50,627 nucleotides of DNA. Origin: Dehalococcoidia bacterium (lineage in GTDB: Bacteria > Chloroflexota > Dehalococcoidia > Lucifugimonadales > UBA3495). Position 1 is the first letter of the stretch; every line of letters starts with the position of its first letter. Positions 22,369 to 36,450 of this stretch are shown here, piece by piece. The notes beneath the pieces were generated by a model that worked only from the letters and a program-made list of their open reading frames with translations, had not been told where the DNA came from and ran no database searches. The DNA lies in the NCBI GenBank assembly GCA_030740155.1, contig JASLXV010000030.1:1-50627 (forward strand), read 5' to 3'. Made by a program: the position numbers and the translations under genes.

Positions 22369-23631
22369 GTGATTGGGGCATCGGGGTTCGTCGCTTTCCG
22401 GTATCGGGAATACCGGCTTTTCTGGCTGGCTGCCGCCCTGTCCAACATCGGCATGTGGGCGCTCACCTACGGCCGCCTGTGGCTGATGCACGAACTCACC
22501 GATTCTCCGCTGATGGTGGGCCTCGTAGCCACCTCCAGCCTCGGACCCGTGCTACTGTTCTCAATATGGGGCGGAGTCGTGGCGGATCAGGTCAATCGCC
22601 TGAAGCTGGTCCGGGTGACCAGGGCGATGTTTGCCGCATTATCGTTGCTGACCGGAATCCTTATCGCGAGCGACGTCATCCAGCCCTGGCACGTGTTTAC
22701 GATCTCGGTGGCGACCGGTATCCTGCTGTCTTTCGACATTCCATCCCGGTCCGCCATGCTGCCGACACTGGTCCCTCAACACCACCTGGCCAGCGGCATC
22801 GCGCTGTACTCAATCGTGTTTGGCGGAGCGGCCATCGTCGGACCGGCCATCCTGGCGCCGCTGGTCGACCTGTGGGGCCTCGAAGGTGTGTTCTTCCTGA
22901 TCGGCGCCGCCTATGCCCTGACCGTCGTGGCGCTGGCGTTCATGAACCCCCACGGCCACCGGCCGGAGAAGCGTCCCGCGACGGTGCTGCAGGGCCTGAC
23001 AGAAGGGTGCGGATATCTGCGCCGCAATCCAATCATCACCGGGGTCATCGCCCTTGGCGTGATAGCCGGCATCTTCGGCAACTCCTTCGAAGCGCTCCTA
23101 CCCGTGTATTCGGACAAGATTCTTTCCGGAGATATCGACACCTACAGCCGGCTACTACTCTCCGCGGGTATAGGCGGGCTTGCCGCCACGATGATCGTCG
23201 CGGTCCTTGGCGTTCAGGTGCATCCGGCAAGGTTCCTGGTCGTCGCCGGGTTCGGCTCCGGCCTGGGATTGCTGGTGCTCTCGCGGCTCGCCTGGTTCCC
23301 GGGCGCCGCGGTCAGCATCGGCCTGATCGGCGCGTTCCAGGTGGTCTTCAACATCATGGGCATCACCGTGATACAGATCCTCACGGCGGACGAATTCCGG
23401 GGCCGGGTCATGAGCATCCACCAGTTCACCTGGGGCGCCACTGCCCTCGGCGGGCTGTTGATGGGGGGAATGGGGGAAACGGTGGGAGTGCCCGCCGCCC
23501 TCGGTCTCGGCGGCCTGGTGGTTGCCGCCGCGACGGTGGTGGTGGCGTTGACTACCCTTCGACAACTCCTGGCCCGTAGCAGCGAGCCCCCTGCCGAATC
23601 CATTCCTTCGGGGCGCCCGGATAGAGCGTAG
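22369..23631 (+). CDS. MFS transporter (H+ antiporter/MFS_3-like); start uncertain
   Basis: FRYREYRLFW, GGVVADQVNR, DIPSRSAMLPTLV, DEFRGRVMS; about 12 TM segments. Confidence 0.9.
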   Translation: MIGASGFVAFRYREYRLFWLAAALSNIGMWALTYGRLWLMHELTDSPLMVGLVATSSLGPVLLFSIWGGVVADQVNRLKLVRVTRAMFAALSLLTGILIASDVIQPWHVFTISVATGILLSFDIPSRSAMLPTLVPQHHLASGIALYSIVFGGAAIVGPAILAPLVDLWGLEGVFFLIGAAYALTVVALAFMNPHGHRPEKRPATVLQGLTEGCGYLRRNPIITGVIALGVIAGIFGNSFEALLPVYSDKILSGDIDTYSRLLLSAGIGGLAATMIVAVLGVQVHPARFLVVAGFGSGLGLLVLSRLAWFPGAAVSIGLIGAFQVVFNIMGITVIQILTADEFRGRVMSIHQFTWGATALGGLLMGGMGETVGVPAALGLGGLVVAAATVVVALTTLRQLLARSSEPPAESIPSGRPDRA

Positions 23632-23811
23632 AGCGTCAGCGACAATAAGACCGGCAGGGGGCCCGGAGGATATTGAAACCCTCTCCCAGACGGCAAACCC
23701 CACTGGAATCCTTCCAATATCTCCAAAATGGACGATTGTTGCGCCGCCGGTCTACAATGCGTTACCCTCTGAGGACGAGCCGCCGCCATCTGAACAGGAG
23801 ACCAATCTCCG

Positions 23812-25521
23812 GTGAGTGCTTGGATCGGCTACCTGGGTCCGGCGAATGCAGGAGAACTGCGGGGGGTTCTGGGCGCCGGCGCCCAAAGTGATGCCGGCGA
23901 CAATGGCACGAGCCATGATACCCGGTGTTACTCGCGGGAAGGCTTCGGGCTCGGGATTACCGGCGGCGCCGGTGAACCCGCCGAGCTTGCCACGGGTCCC
24001 CCCGGAACTGTCACCGCACGAGTAGGTTCTGACGCTGAAGCCGGATGCTCGGCTTCATTCAACTTCAAATTCGACGGCAACAGCGACCCCAACGGCACGA
24101 CGATTACCCTCGCGTGCGACCCCTTTGGATTTCACGAGGTATTCATCGCGCGCGTGGGCTCTGTTCTCTGGTTCGCCTCCGACCTGCGGCTGATGCAAAG
24201 GCATCCGGATATCCCGAAAGTGCTGAGCCCCCAAGCGATACACGGTTACCTTTGCTTTTCCTACGTACCGACCCCGCTCGCGATTGTCGATGGTATCGAA
24301 AAGCTCCCCTCCGGAAGCCGAAGGAGATTTTGCGCCTCCGGTGAGGGGAGATCAGATGGCTCGGCTAACTGGCATGAGCATCAGCATCAGAACATCGATC
24401 AGGAAGAGGCCGTCATTACCTTGCGCGGTCTGCTCCGAGACTCGGTTGCCCGCCGATTGGGCGATGAGCGGGAAGTCGGAGTGTTTCTATCCGGTGGATT
24501 GGACAGCAGCCTCATCGCTGCGTTACTGGTTGACCTCGGTGTGAAGGTCCACCTTTATACACTCGACTTCGGACCTCCTTTTGATGTGGAACTGCCTGTG
24601 GCCAAACAGGTGGCGACGCATTTGGGACGGGAATTGAACATCGTGCCGGCGCACCCCGCTCAAATAGAGGCAGCGTTGGCCCCGACGGCGGCTGCCCTGT
24701 CCCAGCCTTTTGGCGACGGTGTCACCGTCCCGATATTCTTGCTCGGACAGGAAGCCGCCGGGCGAGCGGGCACGATATTCAATGGCGAAGGAGGAGATCA
24801 GCTTCTTGGTGGCTGGACCAGCAAGCCCATGATTGCCGCGGAACTCTACGGGGGAACTGGCTAAGACCGGGAGCAAGCTTATCTTAACACCTACCATCGC
24901 TTCTTTGGCCTCACAGACCAAATGTACACCGAGCAGGCGCACCGCATGGCCGGGCCGGCCGACCCGGGCCATTGGGTAAGGGACGCGCTGAACGCTGAGG
25001 GATTCTCAACCCTGCTACACCGTTTGCGGGCGGTCAATTTGTGGCTGAAGGGGGCACAGAACATCCTTCCCCGCGCCACACTGTTGGCTGATGCCCACGG
25101 CCTTCGGGTGCACTCGCCATTTTTCGACCGGGCTCTCACCGAGTGGACTTTCGGCCTGCCATCGGGATTGCTGCTCCAGGGTGCGTGCGAGAAGTATCTG
25201 CTCAAGAAGGCCGCCGAACCGTACCTTCCTCCGGAGGTGGTCTGGCGGGAAAAGCGCGGCATGGGCGTGCCCACGACCCAGTGGTGCCTTGGGCCATTGA
25301 AGCGAGAGTTAAAGCGCAGGCTGTCGCCCAGTCGCCTAAAGCGGGACGGATGGTTCAATCCGGCGACCATCAAAGAGCTGCGCCGGGGGAACGATGAGCC
25401 GGGGCAATACCGGTACCGGCGCGTGGGCGAGAAGCTAAGGGCGCTCTTGATGCTGCACACCTGGCTAGATACGCGGGAGAAGCCAGTCTCCTGGCCGTCC
25501 TCCGGCTCGAATGGAGGTTAA
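23812..25521 (+). pseudogene. Asparagine synthetase-like ATP pyrophosphatase no. 1, interrupted by an in-frame TAA at 24862-24864
   Basis: FLSGGLDSS PP-loop, NGEGGDQLLGG, then ELYGGTG*DREQAYLNTY continues in frame into SPFFD, EKYLLK, REKRGM. ORFs 23812..24864 and 24922..25521 share one frame. Confidence 0.85.
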
Positions 25522-25523
25522 TC

Positions 25524-26627
25524 ATGAAGTGCGTACACTGCGACCACGTCACGAAATACCCGGCACGTAGTGCTAACGGCGGGCAATGCGAAAAGTGTAA
25601 ACACAGATTCGGCTTTGAGCCCAAGACCGACCAGTACAAGATAGGAGACCCGTTTTTTGATCGTGCCATCCAGAACGTCTCTTCAGAGAACACCGTGTTT
25701 TTCACCCCACGTCAGTTGTGGTACGAGGTTGAGCGCCGCTTGCGGCGCCGGCGATTGAACGACGCCGGTGGAGTGTTTTACGGAATGGCGGTCGTTGCGG
25801 CTATTACAAGCGGGTTCATTGCCTTGGGGTCGTCGAGCGTTATCCCCTTCCTCGTTGGCCTTGGGGCGGCGGCCCTGCTGGTAGGTGCCGGGGTAGCTGT
25901 CAGCAGCATTTCGAAGCGCCGCACACCCCGTCCAGAGATGACGTATCCGACTTTTCGCGATTCCTACCAACGAACCTGGGAGCGCGCGCACGGCGTGATA
26001 GAGAAAATGGTGCCCCCCAACGGTGAACAGGCACTTCAGGCTCACGAGATTGATCCCGATACCACCTCTTGCAGTTTCGATAGAGCCTTGGCAACGGATA
26101 ACGCCGAGATTGCCGCGATGCTGGTGGCCAACAACTTCCACTTTGAGAACAACTGTGCCGTCCTCAGCGTGGACGGCTATCCCTTCGGGATCAAAGATAC
26201 GGTAATGACCATGCTTCGCCGGAACCCTGACCTCCAGGTGTTTGCTCTACACGATGCCTCGGCAGAAGGCTCCGCGCTTCCGCTGACGCTACGAAGTGAA
26301 GAGTGGTTTCCGGATACCAACGTGAAGGTCCTAGACCTGGGACTGAGCCCACGGCACGCCAAGGCCATGAGACTCTTCACAATTAGTGGTACGGAGCAAT
26401 ATCCTCCACCCGAGGTGCGGGAAGTGCTGACGGAGGTCGAATTGGCCTGGCTTCAGAAGGGATTGGTCGCGGAGGTTGCGGTGTTGCGACCGGCCCGCCT
26501 CATTCGGGCCATATACCAAGGTTTCGGCCGAGGGGCGGAGTTGGATACTTCCCAGGGCGGGCAAGAGTACGCGATGAGCGGCGGGTACTACCCAATATAT
26601 TTCGGCGACGACGACAGCTTCGGATAG
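25524..26627 (+). CDS. Uncharacterised membrane protein: Zn ribbon + TxRxxxY motif + 2 TM + Toprim-like domain
   Basis: CVHC...CEKC; FTPRQLWY; two hydrophobic helices; NCAVLSVDGYP...VFALHDASAEG...LDLGLSP; GGAGG RBS; 2-3 nt from both neighbouring genes. Confidence 0.8.
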   Translation: MKCVHCDHVTKYPARSANGGQCEKCKHRFGFEPKTDQYKIGDPFFDRAIQNVSSENTVFFTPRQLWYEVERRLRRRRLNDAGGVFYGMAVVAAITSGFIALGSSSVIPFLVGLGAAALLVGAGVAVSSISKRRTPRPEMTYPTFRDSYQRTWERAHGVIEKMVPPNGEQALQAHEIDPDTTSCSFDRALATDNAEIAAMLVANNFHFENNCAVLSVDGYPFGIKDTVMTMLRRNPDLQVFALHDASAEGSALPLTLRSEEWFPDTNVKVLDLGLSPRHAKAMRLFTISGTEQYPPPEVREVLTEVELAWLQKGLVAEVAVLRPARLIRAIYQGFGRGAELDTSQGGQEYAMSGGYYPIYFGDDDSFG

Positions 26628-26630
26628 GCC

Positions 26631-28310
26631 ATGAGTGGTTTTGTTGGAATACTCGGGGGAAGCGAGTCCGCTCACGAGCTGGCTTCGTTCGGCGCCGAGC
26701 CAACCTGGCACGACGGGACAGTGGCGTTCGCCAGTGCACCCGATTGGACCGACTCGACCGGGACCGTCGTGGCGAGCGGTGAGGTCATTCTGGATAATGC
26801 TGAGGAATTGCGCCGGAAACTGGAATCGCCCGGTTCTGAAGATGGCCAATTGCTCGCCGAGTTGTACCTACGCTACGGGGAGAATACCGGCCGTCACGCC
26901 TTGGGAATGTTCTCCGTCGCCATCTGTGATTCTCGAGCGAATCAACTGGTCTTGTTGCGCGACGGCGTCGGGGCCCGGACCATGTACTACGCCACCGATG
27001 GCCGTCGTTGGTGGTTTGGGTCCCGGTTGCGGGCGGTGCGCGCATTGGCCAGGGTGCCGAAGGACATTTCTCTAACGGCGCTCCGGAATTACCTGACTTT
27101 CGCCTTCGTGCCCGGTAGTGAAACCATGTGGCAGAGCATCTCCGAGCTGAGACCCGGCGTGGCGCTTCGGATACCATCGGGAGAGTTGCGGCCCTATTGG
27201 GAGCCGGAGGAAAGGGTACCGTATCCTCTCGATTCCATCGACGGCCACGCCCTGAGGCTGAGGCCTCTATTGGAGGAAAGCGTCCGGGTACGGCTGCCCA
27301 ACTCGGGGCCGGTCGGCATCTACCTCTCCGGCGGGCTGGACAGCAGCCTGGTCACCGCTTTGGCGGCGCGTGACGCTCCCGGGCCAATACACACCTACGC
27401 CATCAATTTCGGCTCCAAGTATCCGAATGAACTCCCGTTTTCCCAGATGGTGGCAGAGCACTGTGGTACACATCATCACGTTCTGACGGTGACTGAAAAG
27501 CAAATTCAAGAAGCGTTCTGGGAAACGACGGGTGAACTGGATGATCCAATCGGCGACCCCTTGACGGTCCCGAATTGCCTCCTCGGGAAGATAGCATCGC
27601 AGGACACCCAGATTATTCTCAACGGAGAGGGTGGGGACCCCTGCTTCGGTGGGCCGAAGAACCTGCCAATGCTGCTCAACGAGTTGTATGGGCCTGAAGG
27701 AGGCCAATCGGCAGCTTACTTACGCTCGTACCAGAAGTGCTTCGACGATCTGCCGCGGCTCTTGAACGGGGATATCCGATCGGCGTTGGAACAATTGCCG
27801 CCCCAGGAAGAGATACTCGCTCCCTTCCTGACCAACCGGCAGATGCCTCAATACCTGAACCGGTTGATGCACATCAATGTTCGTCTGAAGGGCGCCGACC
27901 ATATCCTGACCAAAGTTAGTAACCTCACGTCGGCGAATGGGTTGATCGGACGTTCACCCTTGTTCGACCGGCGTATTGTCGAGGCCGGCTTCCAAATTCC
28001 CCCGGTTCATAAGCTGGCAGGCACCACGGAAAAGGCGGTTCTCAAGAGGGCCGTGGCCGATCTATTGCCTGAGCCGATTTTGACCCGTCCCAAAAGCGGG
28101 ATGCTGGTACCGGTGCAGGCCTGGTTCAAACACGGATTACGAAGATTCGCTCGCCAAACGCTCCTCGATCGCAAGGCTCGCGTCCGGCCTTACATCGACC
28201 AAGGTGTGGTGAAGGAATGGCTGCAATACCGAGGCAATCTATGGCCTCGGCACGGGGTTAAGATTTGGCTGGTCCTTGCCTTGGAAGTGTGGGTAAGGAT
28301 TCACGAATAA
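26631..28310 (+). CDS. Asparagine synthetase-like ATP pyrophosphatase no. 2 (intact)
   Basis: Ntn-like N-domain (GMFSVAI...LLRDGVGARTMYY) starting MSGFVG; YLSGGLDSS, NGEGGDPCFGG, SPLFD, EKAVLK, RPKSGM. Confidence 0.9.
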   Translation: MSGFVGILGGSESAHELASFGAEPTWHDGTVAFASAPDWTDSTGTVVASGEVILDNAEELRRKLESPGSEDGQLLAELYLRYGENTGRHALGMFSVAICDSRANQLVLLRDGVGARTMYYATDGRRWWFGSRLRAVRALARVPKDISLTALRNYLTFAFVPGSETMWQSISELRPGVALRIPSGELRPYWEPEERVPYPLDSIDGHALRLRPLLEESVRVRLPNSGPVGIYLSGGLDSSLVTALAARDAPGPIHTYAINFGSKYPNELPFSQMVAEHCGTHHHVLTVTEKQIQEAFWETTGELDDPIGDPLTVPNCLLGKIASQDTQIILNGEGGDPCFGGPKNLPMLLNELYGPEGGQSAAYLRSYQKCFDDLPRLLNGDIRSALEQLPPQEEILAPFLTNRQMPQYLNRLMHINVRLKGADHILTKVSNLTSANGLIGRSPLFDRRIVEAGFQIPPVHKLAGTTEKAVLKRAVADLLPEPILTRPKSGMLVPVQAWFKHGLRRFARQTLLDRKARVRPYIDQGVVKEWLQYRGNLWPRHGVKIWLVLALEVWVRIHE

Positions 28311-28404
28311 GGGCCGGCACCCCAAGGCCGGTTATCGAAACTACCGGGGTATTTGACTCAGGCCCTGTATCGAAATTAGCACCCGGATTTGCTAGGATCG
28401 ATTA

Positions 28405-29991
28405 GTGGAGTTCCAAAGACTGGCATTCGGTCTAGTAGTCGCATCTGCTCCTTTGCTCTTTGTCTCATGCTAAGGAGCGCCCACCCAACCGGCTGCGGAG
28501 CCGACAACCGCCTCTGCCGCCGTGCGGCCCACCCAGCCGGCGGTCTCGGCAACCGCCGCGCCGGCTTTGAGGATCAACCCTTCGTCCAGTCCCATGGCAT
28601 CGCCCGCTGCAACAAGTACGCCGGAGCACGCGCCTGCAAGAGGCAATTCGCCAGCTTCAATCGATAGCACCCAACCCCCACCATCGCCTCAGCCGGGCAC
28701 CGCGAATCCTACCGGCGAACCCCACAATGCGGCAACGCAACCGGCCGACAGTACCGGGCAGGCGCAAACCTCTGTATTCTATGAACTGAACGGTTTAACG
28801 CTTGAATATTATTGGCCGCTCGGGGATGGGAGCAATCTCTCCGCGGACGAGACGGAAATACTTGCCTACAACGAAGGCGGCGCGGCCATTGAATTCTTGG
28901 CGCCGCGGATAACGTTCACGGAGAACGGAAGCCCACGGGCGCAATCCAGCGGCACCTGGGAACGGTATCCCTCTCGCTTCAGTTAGGACCGAATCGAATT
29001 CATATCGATCCCGCCCTCCTCCTACCAGGGAGAGCCCTTGCTCTTGCGGCCCGGCGAGAAAGCAAAAATACATTGGCATCTGGAAAGCGTCACCTCGGCA
29101 GTGACCAACCAGTCTATCGCCCTCGACCTCACAGTTATTACCGGTGCCCGTACCGACACCATCACCCAAACCCTCGTCCGGGAATCAGATCGGCCCGGTA
29201 CCAGTACCGGTACCGCCATCGCAACCACGCCCGTTCCCACTTGGCCCGTACCCACTCAGGAACCCCAGGAAACGCCGCCGAGTGCACCCGGTGACACCCA
29301 TGGGGACACATCCGACGCCGCATCAGATGTACGATGGTCGTTCAGCGGGACGGCCTGGTCGCCGACCGGCCCGCCGCCAGATTGCGCGGAGCCCTTCGTC
29401 TTGCGGACACCAGTTGACATAGGTATGGTAACCATGGCGTTGTGGCCCGGCCAGGTACGCGGCGCCTACGTTGCCCATGGCGGGTTCCGCTTTGATGCCG
29501 GCGCCGGCAATAAGGTCACGGTTCGCGCTCCGGCCGGCGCACACTTGGTGCAAGCAAGCCAATACTTGGAGAGCGGCGAGAACCAGTACTTGCTGTTTTT
29601 CTCGGTGCCCTGCGGGTTTTTCTATCGCTTCGATCACGTGATCGTGGTGTCCCCAATAATCTCCGAGGCGCTCAAGGACCTGCCGCCGGCCACCTCCGGG
29701 GACAGCAGAACGACTTATATCAACCCTCCGTTGTGGGTAGAACAAGGAGAAGTCGTCGGTACTTCGGTTGGGATTCCTCCGTCGAATATCTTCGTCGATT
29801 TTGGCCTGTACGACGTGCGCACTCCAAACAACGTCACACCGAACCCGGCCTGGGCTGATATCTATGCCGGCGATAAGGAATTCGGGCACTTCGGAGTATG
29901 CTTCTTTGACTACCTTCCCGGAGACCACGGCGAGTTGATGCGCGCCTTCCCCACCGGGAAAGAAGGTAAAACAAGTGATTATTGCGAGTAG
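28405..29991 (+). pseudogene. Lipoprotein with Pro/Thr-rich linkers and a C-terminal M23/hybrid-motif-like domain; two in-frame stops (TAA 28471-28473, TAG 28984-28986)
   Basis: GTG 28405 gives MEFQRLAFGLVVASAPLLFVSC*GAPTQPA (lipobox-like). One frame continues through ORFs 28522..28986 and 29038..29991 (SRFS*DRIEFISIPP). C-terminal HGGFRFD...VRAPAG...RFDHV...GEVVG. Confidence 0.75.
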
Positions 29992-31506: not shown

Positions 31507-32454
31507 CTACCGGGACACAGTGCACCGGACGCCGCACTCTTCAAAGATGCGGCGCGCCTGATCAACGGTCTCCAGGGAGGCCATGGCCAATCCGCTCAGG
31601 GAGTACGGCCGGTCCAGGGCCCCATATTTTCCTTCGCCGAGGCGATGGTATGGGACGAGTTCAATCCGGGCTTCGCCGCCTCCCGCCTCTCGCAGAAAGG
31701 CCGACGTCTCCTCGATGTTTCGCGGCGTGTCGTTGACGCCGGGAATGAGAGGCATGCGAAAACGAACCGGAACCCCGGATGCGGCCAGGGTGGTGGCGTT
31801 CCGCAGAATCAGGTCGTTGGACTGGCCGGTAGACGTGCGATGAGTTTGAGGGTCCATGTGCTTCAGGTCGAACAGCACGTAATCCGTCAGGGAGAGGGCG
31901 GTCTTCAGAACAGCCGGGTTGACGAAACCAGCGCTCTCGATAGCCGTGTGTATACCCGCTTCCCGGCATAGCTGGAACAGGGCGCAAACGAAATTGGGTT
32001 GCAGCAAGGGCTCTCCGCCCGAGAGGGTGACGCCGCCCCCCGATCCCTGGTAGAAATTCCGGTCACGCTGGACGATCCCGAACACCTCGCCCGCCGTCAT
32101 CTCCTGGCCGTAGATAGCCAGGGCCTCGTCCGAACAAACCTCCACACACTTTCCGCAAGTGGTGCACCGGTCGCGCCGGATCTGGGGCAGCCCGTCGGAC
32201 GCCAGAGTGATCGCCTCTTCTGGGCAGACTGGGGCGCACTTCCCGCACTTGGTGCACCGGGCGGCGATGTAGCCCAGTTCCACTTCTTTGTTCATGGACT
32301 CGGGATTGGCGCACCACAGACACCCCAGGGCGCATCCTTTGAGGAACACGGTGGTGCGAATGCCCGGCCCATCGTGAAGGCAGAAGCGCTGAATGTTGAA
32401 GACCCGTCCCAGAACGGTTTCCGGCGATTCCAGGCTTCCAGCTTTACTCAGCAT
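31507..32454 (-). CDS. Glycyl-radical enzyme activating protein (radical SAM with ferredoxin insert)
   Basis: HDGPGIRTTVFLKGCALGCLWCANPES (CxxxCxxC); CTKCGKC..CP and CTTCGKC..CS; GGVTLSGGEP; ELVPYHRLG. Confidence 0.95.
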   Translation of the reverse strand: MLSKAGSLESPETVLGRVFNIQRFCLHDGPGIRTTVFLKGCALGCLWCANPESMNKEVELGYIAARCTKCGKCAPVCPEEAITLASDGLPQIRRDRCTTCGKCVEVCSDEALAIYGQEMTAGEVFGIVQRDRNFYQGSGGGVTLSGGEPLLQPNFVCALFQLCREAGIHTAIESAGFVNPAVLKTALSLTDYVLFDLKHMDPQTHRTSTGQSNDLILRNATTLAASGVPVRFRMPLIPGVNDTPRNIEETSAFLREAGGGEARIELVPYHRLGEGKYGALDRPYSLSGLAMASLETVDQARRIFEECGVRCTVSR

Positions 32455-34008: not shown

Positions 34009-36450
34009 CTACGCCAGCTCCTGTTCCGTGCGCCGGATGATCTCGTCCTGGACCTCGGGCGCCAGGTGGATGAAGTACGCGCTGTACCCCGCCACCCGGA
34101 CCACCAAGTCGCGGTACTTCTCCGGGTGTTCCTTGGCGGCTACGAGGGTCTGCCGGTCCAGGAAATTGTATTGGATATGGGTTCCCCCGCCGCGGATGAA
34201 GCTTTCAGTGAGGGCAGCCACTTTTTCCAGGGATTCCTGGCTGGCCACCATGGTGATGGGGAACCTCTGGTTGAGAATGGACACCGCCGCCTCTTTGAAG
34301 TCCACCGCCAGCGCCGAGTTCAGCACGGCGGTGGGCCCGTTGCCGTCCCGCCCCTGGGTAGGAGAGAGAGAGCCGTCGGTGAGAGCATCCTCCTTCTTGC
34401 GGCCGTTGGGAAGGGCCCCCACTCCATGGCCGCCGTAGTAATGCCAGCCCACGCCATTGCGGTTGATGGGGTGCTTATCCCCAAAGACGTTCTTCTCGGA
34501 GAAGATGATGGCGGCGGAGTCCTTGCCCAACTGGCGGATCATGCCATCGGCCTGGGCATCCTCGTTTCCATACTTGGGGGCCGCCAGGCACATTACCTGA
34601 ACCTCCTGGCCCCGGTCTCCCTGGAAATTGCTGTCCAGGGCATCCAGGAGCCGGTCCATGGTGAGCCGCTTTTGGTCGTACACCAGCGTCCGGATTGCCG
34701 TTAGCGAGTCGCCCGTATCCACGATGGCCCGGTCCTTGGCGTACCACGTGGGGTGGGTTCCTTGCCCGCCCATCATGACGTCCATCCCGTTTTCCAGGCA
34801 TCCGGGCAGCATCACCGAGAGCAGGGGCATGCGATAGATGGCCACCTCAGCCCGGTGGGCCATCCGGGTCTGCTCAAGGGACCGCCGCAGGATGAACTCG
34901 TACTGCTTTTCAAAGGCGCCGTAGAGCTTGTCGAAGGTATCGAAGCCTCTGGGGTCCCCGGTCTTCAGCCCCACAAGTTTGCCGCTTCGAGGGGCGATTC
35001 CGTTGTGGAGCGCCAGGTCCAGGGCCAGGGCCATATTTATCTTGAAGGCCGGCCGGAAGTAGCACCGGAAGTTGGCGGGAAAGGGCTGAGAGCAGCCGTT
35101 GGCCGCCCAGTCCCGGGCGTCTTCCAAGGGCACGTCGAGGTCCGTCAGGTACTTGACGATGTGGTCGTCGTTATGAAACTGGGGTATGCCGCCGCCGATC
35201 TTCCGGTTGGTCTCCATGGACTTGATCATGGCCCACTTGGGCGTTGAGCCGGCCAGCCGGAGGGTCAACTGAGGCTGGGCGAACCGGAGAAGCCCGGCCA
35301 GGTGAAGGATGAGGTAGGTCAGCTCGTTGCAGGCGTCATCCCCTTCGCGGGTGACCCCCCCGATGGTGATATTTATGATGGAAGAACTCTGCTGACCGTT
35401 CTGGGCGTCCTTGAGGGAGTACATGGCGTGGTCGCGGGCGGCGTAGTTGAACAGTTCGGCTAGCAGGTCGGTGGCTTCCTGCATCGTGAGGCGGCCCTCC
35501 CGCAGGTCGTTCATGAAGTAGGGGTAGAGGGTCTGGTCGAGCCGCCCCAGACTCGGGCCCCAGCCACCTTCCAGCCTCACTCCCACATGGGCGAAGCGGA
35601 TCACCTGCAGGGCCTCGAGGAAGGTAGTAGCGGGGTTGGCCGGCACCTGCCGGCAGACCAGGACCGTCTCCTCCAGCTCTTTCCGGCGCTCGGGGTCACT
35701 CTCGGTGGCAGCCATCTCCTGGGCCAGCCGGGCATGGCGCTCGGCGAACTCAATCAGGGCCTGGCAGGTGATCAGCACCGAGTCCCAGAACCACACCTTC
35801 TCCGGCTGGTCCGAGTCGCTGGCCCCATCCGCCAGGCGCTTCAGGCCCTGCCGGGCCACCTCCATGAAACCGTTGAGCCCCTTGGCCATGACGTTTTCGT
35901 AGAGCAATGCGCCGGAGACGATGGGATGCCGCTCGTAGGGAATGGTGCCGCACACATCGATGAAGTCGTCCCACCAGGATCCCCACAGCCGTTGCCGGGC
36001 ATCCCGCACCAAATCGGCGCCCGTTTTGCCCTCGAAGTAGCGGGCGGTCTCTTCCATAATCTTCAGGTCGTCCTGGGTGTAGATCGCCTCGTGAGCGTCC
36101 GATGACAGGGTGATCTTTCCCGCCTTCAGATGGTCCAGCACGATAGTTGGGTCGAGGTCAACCGGCGGATGGACCCCCTGGAAGTAGGGGGTCTCGCTTC
36201 CCACCAGCCGCTCGTTATCGTGGATGACCACGGGGACGCCCTTCAGGATCCTCTCTACGAGGTGGGCCCGCCGGATCTCGGCGGGCTTGCCATCGCTCTC
36301 CTTCCACGCTTCAACGGCTATCAATGCCCGCTCTTTCGCTACCCGGGTGGAGGTCTCGAAAAGCCTCTCCCGCAAGCGCTGTATCCGCTCGCTAAGGACC
36401 ACACCATCGATTTCCTCGATCAGCTTGTTATCTCTCACGGTGGCGACCAT
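34009..36450 (-). CDS. Glycyl radical enzyme (PFL-family large subunit), substrate unknown
   Basis: 813 aa; SLGRLDQTLYPY, NITIGG, NGCSQ thiyl-Cys loop, PKYGN, HIQYN, LVVRVAGYSAYF glycyl-radical loop; GGAGG RBS. Confidence 0.95.
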   Translation of the reverse strand: MVATVRDNKLIEEIDGVVLSERIQRLRERLFETSTRVAKERALIAVEAWKESDGKPAEIRRAHLVERILKGVPVVIHDNERLVGSETPYFQGVHPPVDLDPTIVLDHLKAGKITLSSDAHEAIYTQDDLKIMEETARYFEGKTGADLVRDARQRLWGSWWDDFIDVCGTIPYERHPIVSGALLYENVMAKGLNGFMEVARQGLKRLADGASDSDQPEKVWFWDSVLITCQALIEFAERHARLAQEMAATESDPERRKELEETVLVCRQVPANPATTFLEALQVIRFAHVGVRLEGGWGPSLGRLDQTLYPYFMNDLREGRLTMQEATDLLAELFNYAARDHAMYSLKDAQNGQQSSSIINITIGGVTREGDDACNELTYLILHLAGLLRFAQPQLTLRLAGSTPKWAMIKSMETNRKIGGGIPQFHNDDHIVKYLTDLDVPLEDARDWAANGCSQPFPANFRCYFRPAFKINMALALDLALHNGIAPRSGKLVGLKTGDPRGFDTFDKLYGAFEKQYEFILRRSLEQTRMAHRAEVAIYRMPLLSVMLPGCLENGMDVMMGGQGTHPTWYAKDRAIVDTGDSLTAIRTLVYDQKRLTMDRLLDALDSNFQGDRGQEVQVMCLAAPKYGNEDAQADGMIRQLGKDSAAIIFSEKNVFGDKHPINRNGVGWHYYGGHGVGALPNGRKKEDALTDGSLSPTQGRDGNGPTAVLNSALAVDFKEAAVSILNQRFPITMVASQESLEKVAALTESFIRGGGTHIQYNFLDRQTLVAAKEHPEKYRDLVVRVAGYSAYFIHLAPEVQDEIIRRTEQELA

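Follow-up and report, generated by a model that had tools for sequence, protein, structure and literature searches.

Two asparagine-synthetase-like ligases flank a membrane protein with a remodelled Toprim domain in a conserved bacterial cassette

Results

The window analysed here, the whole stretch of 50,627 nucleotides, carries a three-gene cassette in which two ligases lacking the cysteine for glutamine use are paired with a membrane protein containing a remodelled topoisomerase-VI-type domain. Our preferred explanation, to which we assign a probability of about 0.4, is that the two putative ligases would adenylate carboxylates in the nearly invariant (D/E)-S-F-G end of this membrane protein to give amides. 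A literature search found no paper on the cassette and no matching described system.

The three genes lie in the same orientation on the + strand, between positions 23812 and 28310. The first, asn1 (23812..25521, +), encodes an AsnB-like PP-loop ligase of type 1 and comprises 569 codons, including one in-frame TAA. The second, mid (25524..26627, +), encodes a 367-residue protein made of a Zn ribbon, a membrane hairpin, a Toprim domain and a conserved tail, and the third, asn2 (26631..28310, +), an AsnB-like PP-loop ligase of type 2 with 559 residues. The spacings of 2 nt between asn1 and mid and 3 nt between mid and asn2, already reported in an earlier sequence-only reading of this DNA, agree with these coordinates. 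The start codon of asn1 is GTG, with AGGAG read off the sequence 11 nt upstream. The promoter proposed in the same reading, TGGACG-N18-TACAAT (23729..23758, +; 9 of 12 positions matching), is indeed present 5' of asn1 and is the only promoter-like site within the intergenic gap preceding this gene, but such sites are not more frequent than expected by chance (two in the 5.3 kb from 23400 to 28700, versus 1.3 ± 1.1 in shuffled sequences). The in-frame TAA of asn1 is codon 351 (24862..24864, +), and the reading frame continues unchanged beyond it. It falls in a variable linker and aligns with a tyrosine in 7 of 13 orthologues. Because an intact 569-residue protein in public data (P0263), identical at 566 of 569 positions (99%), has a tyrosine there, sequence comparison indicates that the stop codon is strain- or assembly-specific. 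Given this codon, the cassette may be non-functional in the window's own strain.

Homologues of mid are numerous (at least 994, with 1646 cluster representatives at E <= 1e-3). From 462 relatives in species genomes, 78 loci were retrieved, 49 of which had at least 4 kb of upstream and at least 4.5 kb of downstream flank. An AsnB-like gene was present on both sides of mid in 44 of these 49 loci, and at least one was found beside mid in 76 of the 78. The cassette is kept together across many bacterial phyla, and the co-occurrence of both AsnB paralogues, suggested earlier as a check on the system, supports the view that the trio is a conserved module and not a chance neighbourhood. Between the two ligase genes, each present once, the middle gene can be repeated in tandem: 63 loci have one copy, 10 have two, 4 have three and 1 has six.

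Both ligases contain SGGLDS and NGEGGD, and both motifs are invariant within each type. In asn1 the PP-loop covers residues 227-232 (24490..24507, +), with S227, G228, G229, D231 and S232 invariant in 14/14 aligned sequences (asn1 and 13 orthologues); in asn2 it covers residues 233-238 (27327..27344, +), with S233, G234, G235, D237 and S238 invariant in 23/23. The Pfam Asn_synthase family matched asn1 in two segments (2.5e-29 and 1.3e-25) and also asn2 (3.1e-71), so that the asparagine-synthetase fold first read from the motifs is upheld. Among solved structures, the best relatives of asn2 are the hydroxyamidotransferase 7ylz (3.9e-45), then AsnB (1ct9), CarA and beta-lactam synthetase. In a tree of 60 type-1 and 54 type-2 ligases, a single branch with an SH-like support of 100 separated the two types, and the two clades mirrored each other, with the same internal order of phyla. 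This tree supports the conclusion that the ligases are divergent paralogues that co-diversified; their divergence had been claimed from the two proteins of the window. The N-terminal cysteine nucleophile is missing in nearly all ligases of related loci: type-1 proteins typically begin MSxxxGYWG, and the N-terminal domain of asn1 is degenerate and without this cysteine, while type-2 proteins also lack it at their start, asn2 beginning MSG and keeping a GATase_7-like N-domain (1.6e-15). Because SGGLDS and NGEGGD are invariant and the starting cysteine is missing, both ligases look active, yet apparently cannot use glutamine.

The AF2 model of the middle protein has a pLDDT of 84.2 and a pTM of 0.82. 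The N-terminal Zn ribbon (residues 1-30; 25524..25613, +) is modelled with a pLDDT of 95-97, and its four cysteines C3, C6, C22 and C25 are invariant in 20/20 aligned homologues. A hydrophobic hairpin follows (residues about 84-131; 25773..25916, +), consisting of two predicted membrane helices around an SSSVIP turn. Its Kyte-Doolittle (KD) hydropathy exceeds 1.4 at scanning positions centred on residues 90-122, it is preceded by 6 and followed by 4 K/R residues, and the model places helices at 62-102 and 107-130. Zn ribbon and membrane helices, both announced in the sequence-only reading, are thus confirmed. According to the positive-inside rule, both hairpin ends, and so both soluble parts of the protein, would be cytoplasmic. 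The long juxtamembrane helix opens with T61-x-R63-x-x-x-Y67 (25704..25724, +); over 72 sequences the threonine is kept in 69, R63 in 38 and Y67 in 67, with W or F in the other 5. We rejected this motif as a Spo11-like catalytic site, since its arginine is kept in only 38/72, its tyrosine is not invariant and the match to Top6A covers only model residues 168-359.

The C-terminal domain (residues 168-342; 26025..26549, +) was compared with known structures. The best match was the Top6A chain 1d3y_A (Z 11.9, rmsd 3.6 Å over 158 aligned residues, model 168-359 against chain 170-368), followed by MksG (8b7f, Z 9.6), JetD (7til, Z 8.3) and Spo11 (8uru, Z 7.5). The fold is thereby common to the Toprim domains of Top6A/Spo11 and JetD/MksG (PF21180; 9o0g also among them) over about 160 residues. 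PF21180 matched 18 of 20 mid family members, the window's own protein being unmatched, and 6 of 12 longer relatives exceeded the Pfam cut-off; the GYP and NC sequence landmarks also align. However, the DxD motif has become D/N-A/C-S/T: its second aspartate is Ser or Thr in 69/72 sequences and its first is Asn in 15/72, while the position equivalent to the Toprim glutamate remains D/E in 66/72. D186, H206, E208, C211, N234 and H243 are new invariant residues. Model and alignments together point to a real Top6A/Spo11-type Toprim domain whose acidic triad has been remodelled. The Spo11/TopoVI-A likeness proposed earlier therefore stands for the fold but not for the CAP domain or the catalytic site: structure comparison of the model matched no 5Y-CAP domain. 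Conservation extends strongly over the whole 340-residue body, beyond the tail alone.

The tail (26550..26624, +) is acidic, rich in Gly, Ser and Tyr, predicted to be disordered (pLDDT below 50 for residues 346-367), and ends in D-S-F-G. FG is C-terminal in 74/74 called copies of mid, with D/E at -4 in 71/74 and S at -3 in 57/74. The last 35 residues contain 17.8% G, 12.9% D, 11.5% S, 6.2% Y and 0.7% K, compared with 4.6% K in the body. The FG end is sometimes lost in extra tandem copies (locus L023 has copies ending GSG as well as one divergent copy, and one copy of L024 ends GLG), which suits a simple substrate poorly. A disordered, lysine-poor tail, a fixed end and tandem gene copies are substrate-like features.

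Discussion

Asparagine-synthetase-like enzymes without glutaminase activity, such as lasso peptide cyclases, beta-lactam synthetase and CarA, activate a carboxylate by adenylation and join it in an amide bond, and the cysteine-less lasso cyclases do so on Asp/Glu side chains. In ubiquitin-like proteins, carboxylate adenylation usually takes place at a terminal glycine. In the cassette, the ligases would act on the tail of the middle protein, where the candidate carboxylates are the α-carboxylate of the terminal glycine and the Asp/Glu side chain at -4, possibly one per ligase. The nucleophile would be something other than glutamine-derived ammonia: it could be ammonia in free form or an amine, either intramolecular or separate. 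A LysA-like PLP decarboxylase present in 37/78 loci, though not in the window, could supply or process such an amine. The effect of the modification on the middle protein would be to mature it, switch it or tether it. PMC13060819 describes enzymes of this fold whose targets are the C-terminal carboxylates in ribosomal peptides: PesC forms an amide first and a nitrile next, while TsrC, ScdTA and AsnO amidate. They share with the cassette ligases the fold, the PP-loop and a substrate gene adjoining the enzyme gene, and they adenylate the peptide carboxylate before forming the amide, a chemistry that is putative for the cassette tail. They differ in using, by the mechanism given there, glutamine-derived ammonia, whereas the cassette ligases have no cysteine nucleophile, and in working as single enzymes on short precursor peptides, whereas the cassette has two co-evolving paralogues around a 367-residue membrane protein. 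Judged by its alignment, the conserved body of that protein would suit an enzyme, a sensor or a scaffold no less than a passive substrate, and its fixed acidic-aromatic end may serve as a docking peptide instead of a reaction site. A protein- or peptide-modification module, as first suggested for this DNA, nonetheless stays our best reading, whereas the defence role suggested alongside it is unsupported.

A serious alternative, which we consider possible but rather unlikely, is that the middle protein serves as membrane scaffold or carrier for the synthesis of some other product, in a pathway that would include the decarboxylase or a cupin and a CBM-like membrane protein. Its strongly conserved body would suit a docking platform. 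The decarboxylase (37/78 loci) and a cupin (23/78) never occur together, and 58/78 loci encode an additional membrane protein, the modelled representative of which (u265 type, locus L018) has a C-terminal CBM11/CBM4-like beta-sandwich (6r31_A, E 2.4e-08) that hints at the envelope. In NCBIfam, asn1 matches the XrtA/PEP-CTERM-associated amidotransferase TIGR03108 best, and the decarboxylase matches the exosortase-A-associated TIGR03099 as well as FslC, which decarboxylates N-acylated ornithine. Related loci thus resemble the TIGR03108/TIGR03099 pair in joining an asparagine-synthetase-like enzyme to a LysA-family decarboxylase; the pair has, to our knowledge, no established function. The scores are, however, far under the cut-offs (188.6 versus 816.9 and 103.9 versus 478.45 bits), and the cassette loci showed neither an exosortase nor a PEP-CTERM gene. 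In LysW/AmCP systems, an ATP-dependent ligase joins an amine-bearing substrate to the carboxylate of a Zn-ribbon protein's acidic C-terminal tail. Unlike the middle protein, LysW is small and soluble, the ligase acting on it is of the ATP-grasp type, and the parallel is an analogy of logic only. The carrier-protein concept is taken from PMC11726168. Against this alternative, the gene clusters of the 78 loci revealed neither a conserved transporter nor a conserved glycosyltransferase. Moreover, the core function needs no decarboxylase, cupin or CBM-like protein, because only the three core genes are present in the window and in the loci most closely related to it (L001, L002, L006 and L008).

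There is a slim chance that the tail is instead the core peptide of a RiPP-like system, cyclised or amidated by the ligases, then cleaved and released. The lasso cyclase model NF033535 has matches in both ligases (7.3e-49 for asn2), the variable tail has a fixed end, mid occurs in tandem copies, and the gene immediately upstream of the cassette in the window encodes an MFS_3 exporter. However, the NF033535 scores of 166.9 and 61.3 bits are far under the cut-off of 525, and unlike lasso systems the cassette loci showed no B-type protease, PqqD-like RRE or short precursor. No conserved exporter was found either, the MFS gene having no tblastn match of at least 50 bits in the 78 loci, and the tail has almost no lysine for a lactam. 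We know of no precedent for a conserved 340-residue membrane leader. The beta-lactam enzymes, for their part, act on small molecules, unlike the chemistry proposed here for the cassette.

Fainter still is the prospect that the Toprim protein binds or cuts DNA at the membrane in the manner of Wadjet JetD/MksG, with the ligases as regulators. The structural kinship of the domain, its retained acidic residue at the Glu position and the patchy distribution of the cassette would suit a DNA-directed or anti-phage module, and in two variants of the middle protein the Toprim domain is preceded by an inserted ComEA-like helix-hairpin-helix, which hints at DNA. Compared with Top6A/Spo11 and JetD/MksG, however, the protein shows no 5Y-CAP or catalytic tyrosine, has its DxD altered, and adds an N-terminal Zn ribbon, a membrane hairpin and the new invariant residues. 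No gene for a Top6B, JetABC or SMC partner lies close by, and the neighbour clusters that recur in related loci include none for nucleases, SMC proteins or restriction; the window neighbours are metabolic or transport genes, and no PADLOC family matched the three proteins except for a marginal QueC match (E 0.0039).

It is hardly credible that asn1 and asn2 encode ordinary asparagine synthetases using ammonia, beside an unrelated middle gene. They are the sole full-length Asn_synthase genes of the assembly, and the genome encodes asparaginyl-tRNA synthetase, an enzyme that uses free asparagine, but both proteins score under the AsnB equivalog cut-off (TIGR01536; 158 bits for asn1 and 243.4 for asn2, versus 267.1), neither has the cysteine nucleophile, their linkage to mid holds across phyla, GatB is present, and one of the two genes here contains a stop codon. 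Because the cassette was found in 0/30 relatives and the lineage lacks a canonical AsnB (0/12 same-family relatives above the cut-off), the genomic comparison indicates that the cassette is neither ordinary asparagine biosynthesis nor housekeeping, in agreement with what the gene arrangement had first suggested. The exception among ligase starts is the type-1 gene of the Myxococcota loci, which reads VCGIW and, with a GTG start, would possibly provide a cysteine nucleophile.

Organisation and conservation of the cassette

The cassette consists of three genes on the forward strand: asn1 (23812-25521), which has a GTG start and encodes 569 residues when an in-frame TAA is read through, mid (25524-26627), which starts 2 nt after asn1 and encodes the 367-residue middle protein, and asn2 (26631-28310), 3 nt after mid. 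These coordinates agree with the sequence-only reading, which had described three co-directional genes with gaps of 2 and 3 nt. The promoter it proposed upstream of asn1, TGGACG-18-TACAAT, is present at 23729-23758 (+ strand), but the number of promoter-like sites in the scanned region (2, against 1.3 ± 1.1 in shuffles) is near the shuffled level. No terminator-like site was found on the + strand of the scanned cassette region. The TAA is the only in-frame stop in asn1 (24862-24864); the reading frame is unchanged beyond it, and its position lies in a variable linker occupied by tyrosine in 7 of 13 aligned orthologues. It is probably strain- or assembly-specific, because P0263, a public protein of 569 residues from a cluster with 34 member sequences on 3 contigs, is identical to asn1 at 566/569 positions and carries Tyr there. 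As the remainder of asn1 is undecayed, we read the stop either as a nonsense mutation of recent origin or as an error of assembly.

A scan that took a single genome from each species detected relatives of the middle protein at 462 places; 78 related loci were fetched. When searched by tblastn with the window proteins, these loci displayed the same gene order: a type-1 (asn1-like) ligase gene, one to six middle genes and a type-2 (asn2-like) ligase gene. Loci of the window's clade have the type-2 gene on the same strand as the others, those of Acidobacteriota and Cyanobacteriota on the opposite one. The largest array, in a Longimicrobium MAG (L023:5419-12828), has six tandem middle genes between single type-1 and type-2 ligase genes. 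At least one AsnB-like gene was found in 76 of the 78 loci. Synteny was counted on the 49 loci whose flanks reached 4 kb or more upstream and 4.5 kb or more downstream: 44 had an AsnB-like gene on both sides, two upstream only, one downstream only and two none. The co-occurrence of both AsnB paralogues, which the sequence-only reading had put forward as a check, is therefore the rule in these neighbourhoods.

The two flanking ligases

Both outer proteins matched the Pfam Asn_synthase domain (PF00733), asn1 in two pieces (2.5e-29 and 1.3e-25) and asn2 at 3.1e-71. They share with AsnB the PP-loop domain with its SGGxDS motif, and the intact SGGLDS and NGEGGD motifs noticed earlier were read in both. 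The glutaminase-domain model GATase_7 was matched by asn2 (1.6e-15) and not by asn1. Neither protein has the N-terminal Cys nucleophile, asn1 beginning (M)SAWIG and asn2 MSGFVG, and this residue is missing in nearly all of the 61 type-1 and 54 type-2 orthologues. Cys-less members of the asparagine-synthetase (AS) fold, such as beta-lactam synthetase, CarA and the lasso cyclases, use no glutamine-derived ammonia. In a FastTree phylogeny of 114 ligases, one branch (SH-like support 100) parts 60 type-1 from 54 type-2 sequences, a split that is partly presupposed since the two groups were set by best BLAST match to the window's two ligases. Lineages appear in the same order in both halves of the tree: Myxococcota/Planctomycetota, then Armatimonadota, Gemmatimonadota and Poribacteria together with the window, then Acidobacteriota with Cyanobacteria. 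Judged from their sequences, type-1 and type-2 proteins are PP-loop ligases that co-evolve, keep their ATP-site motifs intact and lack the glutaminase nucleophile. The possible exceptions are the Myxococcota type-1 ligases of L067, L071 and L052, which read MSAVCGIW at their start; translation from the Val codon may give (M)CGIW, the beginning expected of an AsnB that truly uses glutamine.

The middle protein is predicted to combine a zinc ribbon, a membrane hairpin and a Toprim domain

The middle protein had no match in NCBIfam, and the window's own copy had no Pfam match better than E 0.039. It has at least 994 homologues at E ≤ 1e-3, the closest non-self sequence being 50% identical among the matches listed. 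Searching 1.84 billion cluster representatives returned 1646 at E ≤ 1e-3, 1148 at ≤ 1e-10 and 473 at ≤ 1e-30; with the 462 places in one-per-species genomes, this family size gives weight to the question of its function. Members occur in Armatimonadota, Gemmatimonadota, Poribacteria, Chloroflexota, Actinomycetota, Acidobacteriota, Cyanobacteriota, Myxococcota and Planctomycetota. Automatic labels are the only names of this large family; one of them, on an ESM Atlas cluster with 802 members, refers to the Top6A Toprim domain.

An AF2 model built from 20 sequences (pLDDT 84.2, pTM 0.82) starts with a Zn ribbon, whose four cysteines (C3, C6, C22, C25) are invariant in the alignment. It is followed by a short helix and a long helix (62-102) entering a hydrophobic hairpin that extends to about residue 131 and is flanked by K/R on both sides. 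Past the hairpin, a linker helix leads to an alpha/beta domain (168-342), and the tail (346-367) has a pLDDT below 50. This alpha/beta domain is a Toprim domain of the Top6A/Spo11 type. The family profile had 1d3y as its best solved match (E 0.22). Of 20 family members, 18 matched the Toprim model PF21180 (best E 2.6e-06) and two, among them the window's own protein, did not; the model's cut-off of 24.1 bits was exceeded by 6 of 12 longer relatives. The top Foldseek rows were Top6A chains at E ~1e-3, none reaching E ≤ 0.001. VIA-align superimposed residues 168-359 of the model on residues 170-368 of 1d3y_A (Z 11.9, rmsd 3.6 Å, 158 residues aligned), followed by 9o0g (Z 11.6), MksG 8b7f (Z 9.6), JetD 7til (Z 8.3) and Spo11 8uru (Z 7.5). 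The cysteine alignment, hydropathy and the model with its superpositions thus bear out the Zn ribbon, TM helices and Toprim-like region first noticed in the sequence. In two public relatives, P0008 (450 aa) and P0012 (455 aa), a ComEA-like helix-hairpin-helix insert (PF12836 / PF00633) separates the membrane linker from the Toprim domain; both retain a DSFG end despite the insert.

A constrained C-terminal tail as the candidate substrate

Among the 78 related loci, 74 middle-protein ORFs were called, and every one of them ends in FG. At position -4, 61 of these 74 carry D and 10 carry E; S occupies position -3 in 57, and Y or F stands at -7 in 52. G (17.8%), D (12.9%), S (11.5%) and Y (6.2%) are abundant in the last 35 residues, of which K accounts for 0.7% versus 4.6% in the body of the protein. 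A flexible, free, acidic C-terminus ending in Gly is the most constrained short feature of the middle protein. Copies found by tblastn alone mostly share the tail end, and some extra tandem copies deviate: the six copies of the L023 array end in DGFG (three), GSG (two) and a divergent sequence (one), and one copy in L024 ends in GLG.

Enzymes of the AS fold adenylate carboxylates and then hand them to an amine. Some AS-like enzymes have been shown to modify ribosomal peptides at their C-terminal carboxylates (PMC13060819). For a reaction of this PesC/TsrC kind on the product of an adjacent gene, the fixed FG end and the synteny are indirect evidence. We propose, at a probability of roughly 0.4, that the two ligases adenylate and amidate the terminal Gly carboxylate of the middle protein, the Asp/Glu at position -4, or both. 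Adenylation would come first, at either or both of these sites, and the adenylated tail carboxylates would then become amides. Such a reaction would be a new post-translational change of whole proteins, carried out by a fold known for acting on small molecules and short peptides. The topoisomerase-VI/Spo11 Toprim domain would gain a use outside DNA cleavage, and the co-evolving ligase pair would offer a division of labour directly testable by mass spectrometry.

Accessory genes and alternative roles

Several genes recur beside the cassette in other lineages. A LysA-like PLP decarboxylase was found by tblastn in 37 of the 78 loci (e.g. L038:4453-5670); it scored 238.6 bits on TIGR01048, under the cut-off of 297.9, and also matched TIGR03099 and FslC. 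A cupin was found, again by tblastn, in 23 of the 78 (e.g. L063:10399-11127), and no locus had both, as if the decarboxylase and the cupin stood in for each other as accessory enzymes. Two weakly related types of membrane protein, u207 and u265, are encoded immediately upstream of the type-1 ligase gene, in 37 and 21 loci respectively, never together, so that one or the other is present in 58/78. A model of u265 (L018:4533-5363; pLDDT 86.6) shows two long N-terminal helices, a disordered linker and a C-terminal beta-sandwich resembling CBM11, CBM4 and CBM29 (6r31_A, E 2.4e-08). A TrkA-N/Ion_trans_2 potassium-channel gene adjoins the cassette in 16 of the 78 loci (e.g. L055:1943-3181, - strand); it is mostly divergent from the cassette and occurs in Acidobacteriota and some other loci. 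None of these five (decarboxylase, cupin, u207, u265, TrkA-type channel) had a tblastn match in the window, where, as in its nearest relatives L001, L002, L006 and L008, the core three genes stand alone.

If the tail is modified as proposed, the decarboxylase or the cupin might supply or process the amine in other lineages, and the window would hold the minimal form. A more elaborate and rather unlikely version is a protein-conjugation system in which AS-type PP-loop ligases would replace E1 enzymes. The terminal Gly and the Asp at -4 would be adenylated and amide-linked to an amine of another molecule, for which a lipid head group, a second middle protein or a diamine produced by the decarboxylase could serve. 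The outcome would be an assembly tethered or cross-linked covalently at the inner membrane face and connected, in most lineages, with a partner outside that binds glycans.

The main rival to tail modification is that the middle protein serves as a membrane platform or carrier on which something else is made, possibly tied to the envelope. The CBM-like partner would provide this tie, and we regard the idea as possible if somewhat doubtful. Such a role would suggest that soil, mat and marine bacteria make a hitherto unknown metabolite containing an amide, or modify their envelope in an as yet undescribed way. A RiPP-like release of the tail is improbable. The window's ligases differ from the lasso peptide cyclase in falling far below its 525-bit cut-off (NF033535; asn1 61.3 bits, asn2 166.9 bits), and no B protease, PqqD-like RRE or short-precursor family of Pfam was found, at the scale of Pfam-sized genes, among the window neighbours or the recurrent neighbour clusters.

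A role in DNA transactions or in defence, the latter raised by the sequence-only reading, appears very improbable. The middle protein shares its Toprim domain (PF21180 type) with Top6A and Spo11 and differs from them in not retaining the Glu and DxD metal site. This metal site is remodelled: D/E stands at the Glu-aligned position in 66 of 72 sequences, DxD begins with D in 56 and with N in 15, and its second Asp has given way to S or T in 69; the invariant residues are instead D186, H206, E208, C211, N234 and H243. In a search with the whole model, structural matches to Top6A were confined to residues 168-359, and nothing corresponding to the 5Y-CAP domain was matched. The motif T61-x-R63-x-x-x-Y67, considered as a Spo11-like catalytic tyrosine site, lies where the juxtamembrane helix begins; R63 is R in only 38/72 sequences and Y67, kept in 67/72, is W or F in 5/72, and the motif is therefore no conserved catalytic R/Y pair. 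Of the Spo11/TopoVI-A likeness originally proposed, the Toprim domain stands and the TxRxxxY catalytic site does not. PADLOC returned nothing for mid or asn2 and a marginal QueC match for asn1, and the genes surrounding the cassette in the window are not defence genes, so we rejected a defence island. Wadjet JetD and MksG differ further in that no SMC-like neighbour (JetABC/MksBEF) was found at the window or in the recurrent clusters. In a term search, asparagine, membrane, transmembrane and zinc were all missing from a Mini-A/Topo VIII survey (PMC7671362). Literature searches found no paper on this cassette, which belongs to none of the families or systems tested.

Genomic context of the cassette

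asn1 and asn2 are the sole full-length Asn_synthase genes of the assembly. They differ from AsnB in lacking the Cys nucleophile and in scoring 158 and 243.4 bits against an equivalog cut-off of 267.1 (TIGR01536). An AsnB above this cut-off was encoded in 3 of the 21 genomes searched (the window's own and 20 relatives) and in none of 12 same-family relatives. The middle protein was found in none of 30 genomes related at the level of genus, family or order. Because of these absences, and because the window's genome encodes both GatB (gatB) and AsnS (asnS), the cassette is best regarded as an acquired extra and not as the lineage's asparagine route. Ordinary asparagine synthesis, which had already seemed a poor fit from the sequence, is thus hardly credible given the missing nucleophile, the sub-threshold scores and the absence of the cassette from relatives.

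In the window, the cassette is preceded by genes for an enoyl-CoA hydratase, a TPP enzyme, an enolase-superfamily enzyme and an MFS_3 transporter, and followed by unmatched ORFs and genes for a luciferase-like monooxygenase, a radical-SAM activase and a glycyl-radical enzyme. The MFS gene and the downstream ORFs had no tblastn match of at least 50 bits in the 78 loci. The ORFs, of 92, 154 and 317 aa (28389-29991, + strand), have no Pfam match and are candidate genes. The radical-SAM activase, with ferredoxin-type clusters (31507-32454, - strand), and the PFL-like glycyl-radical enzyme (34009-36450, - strand; PFL-like 1.2e-136, Gly_radical 4.6e-26) are unrelated to the cassette.
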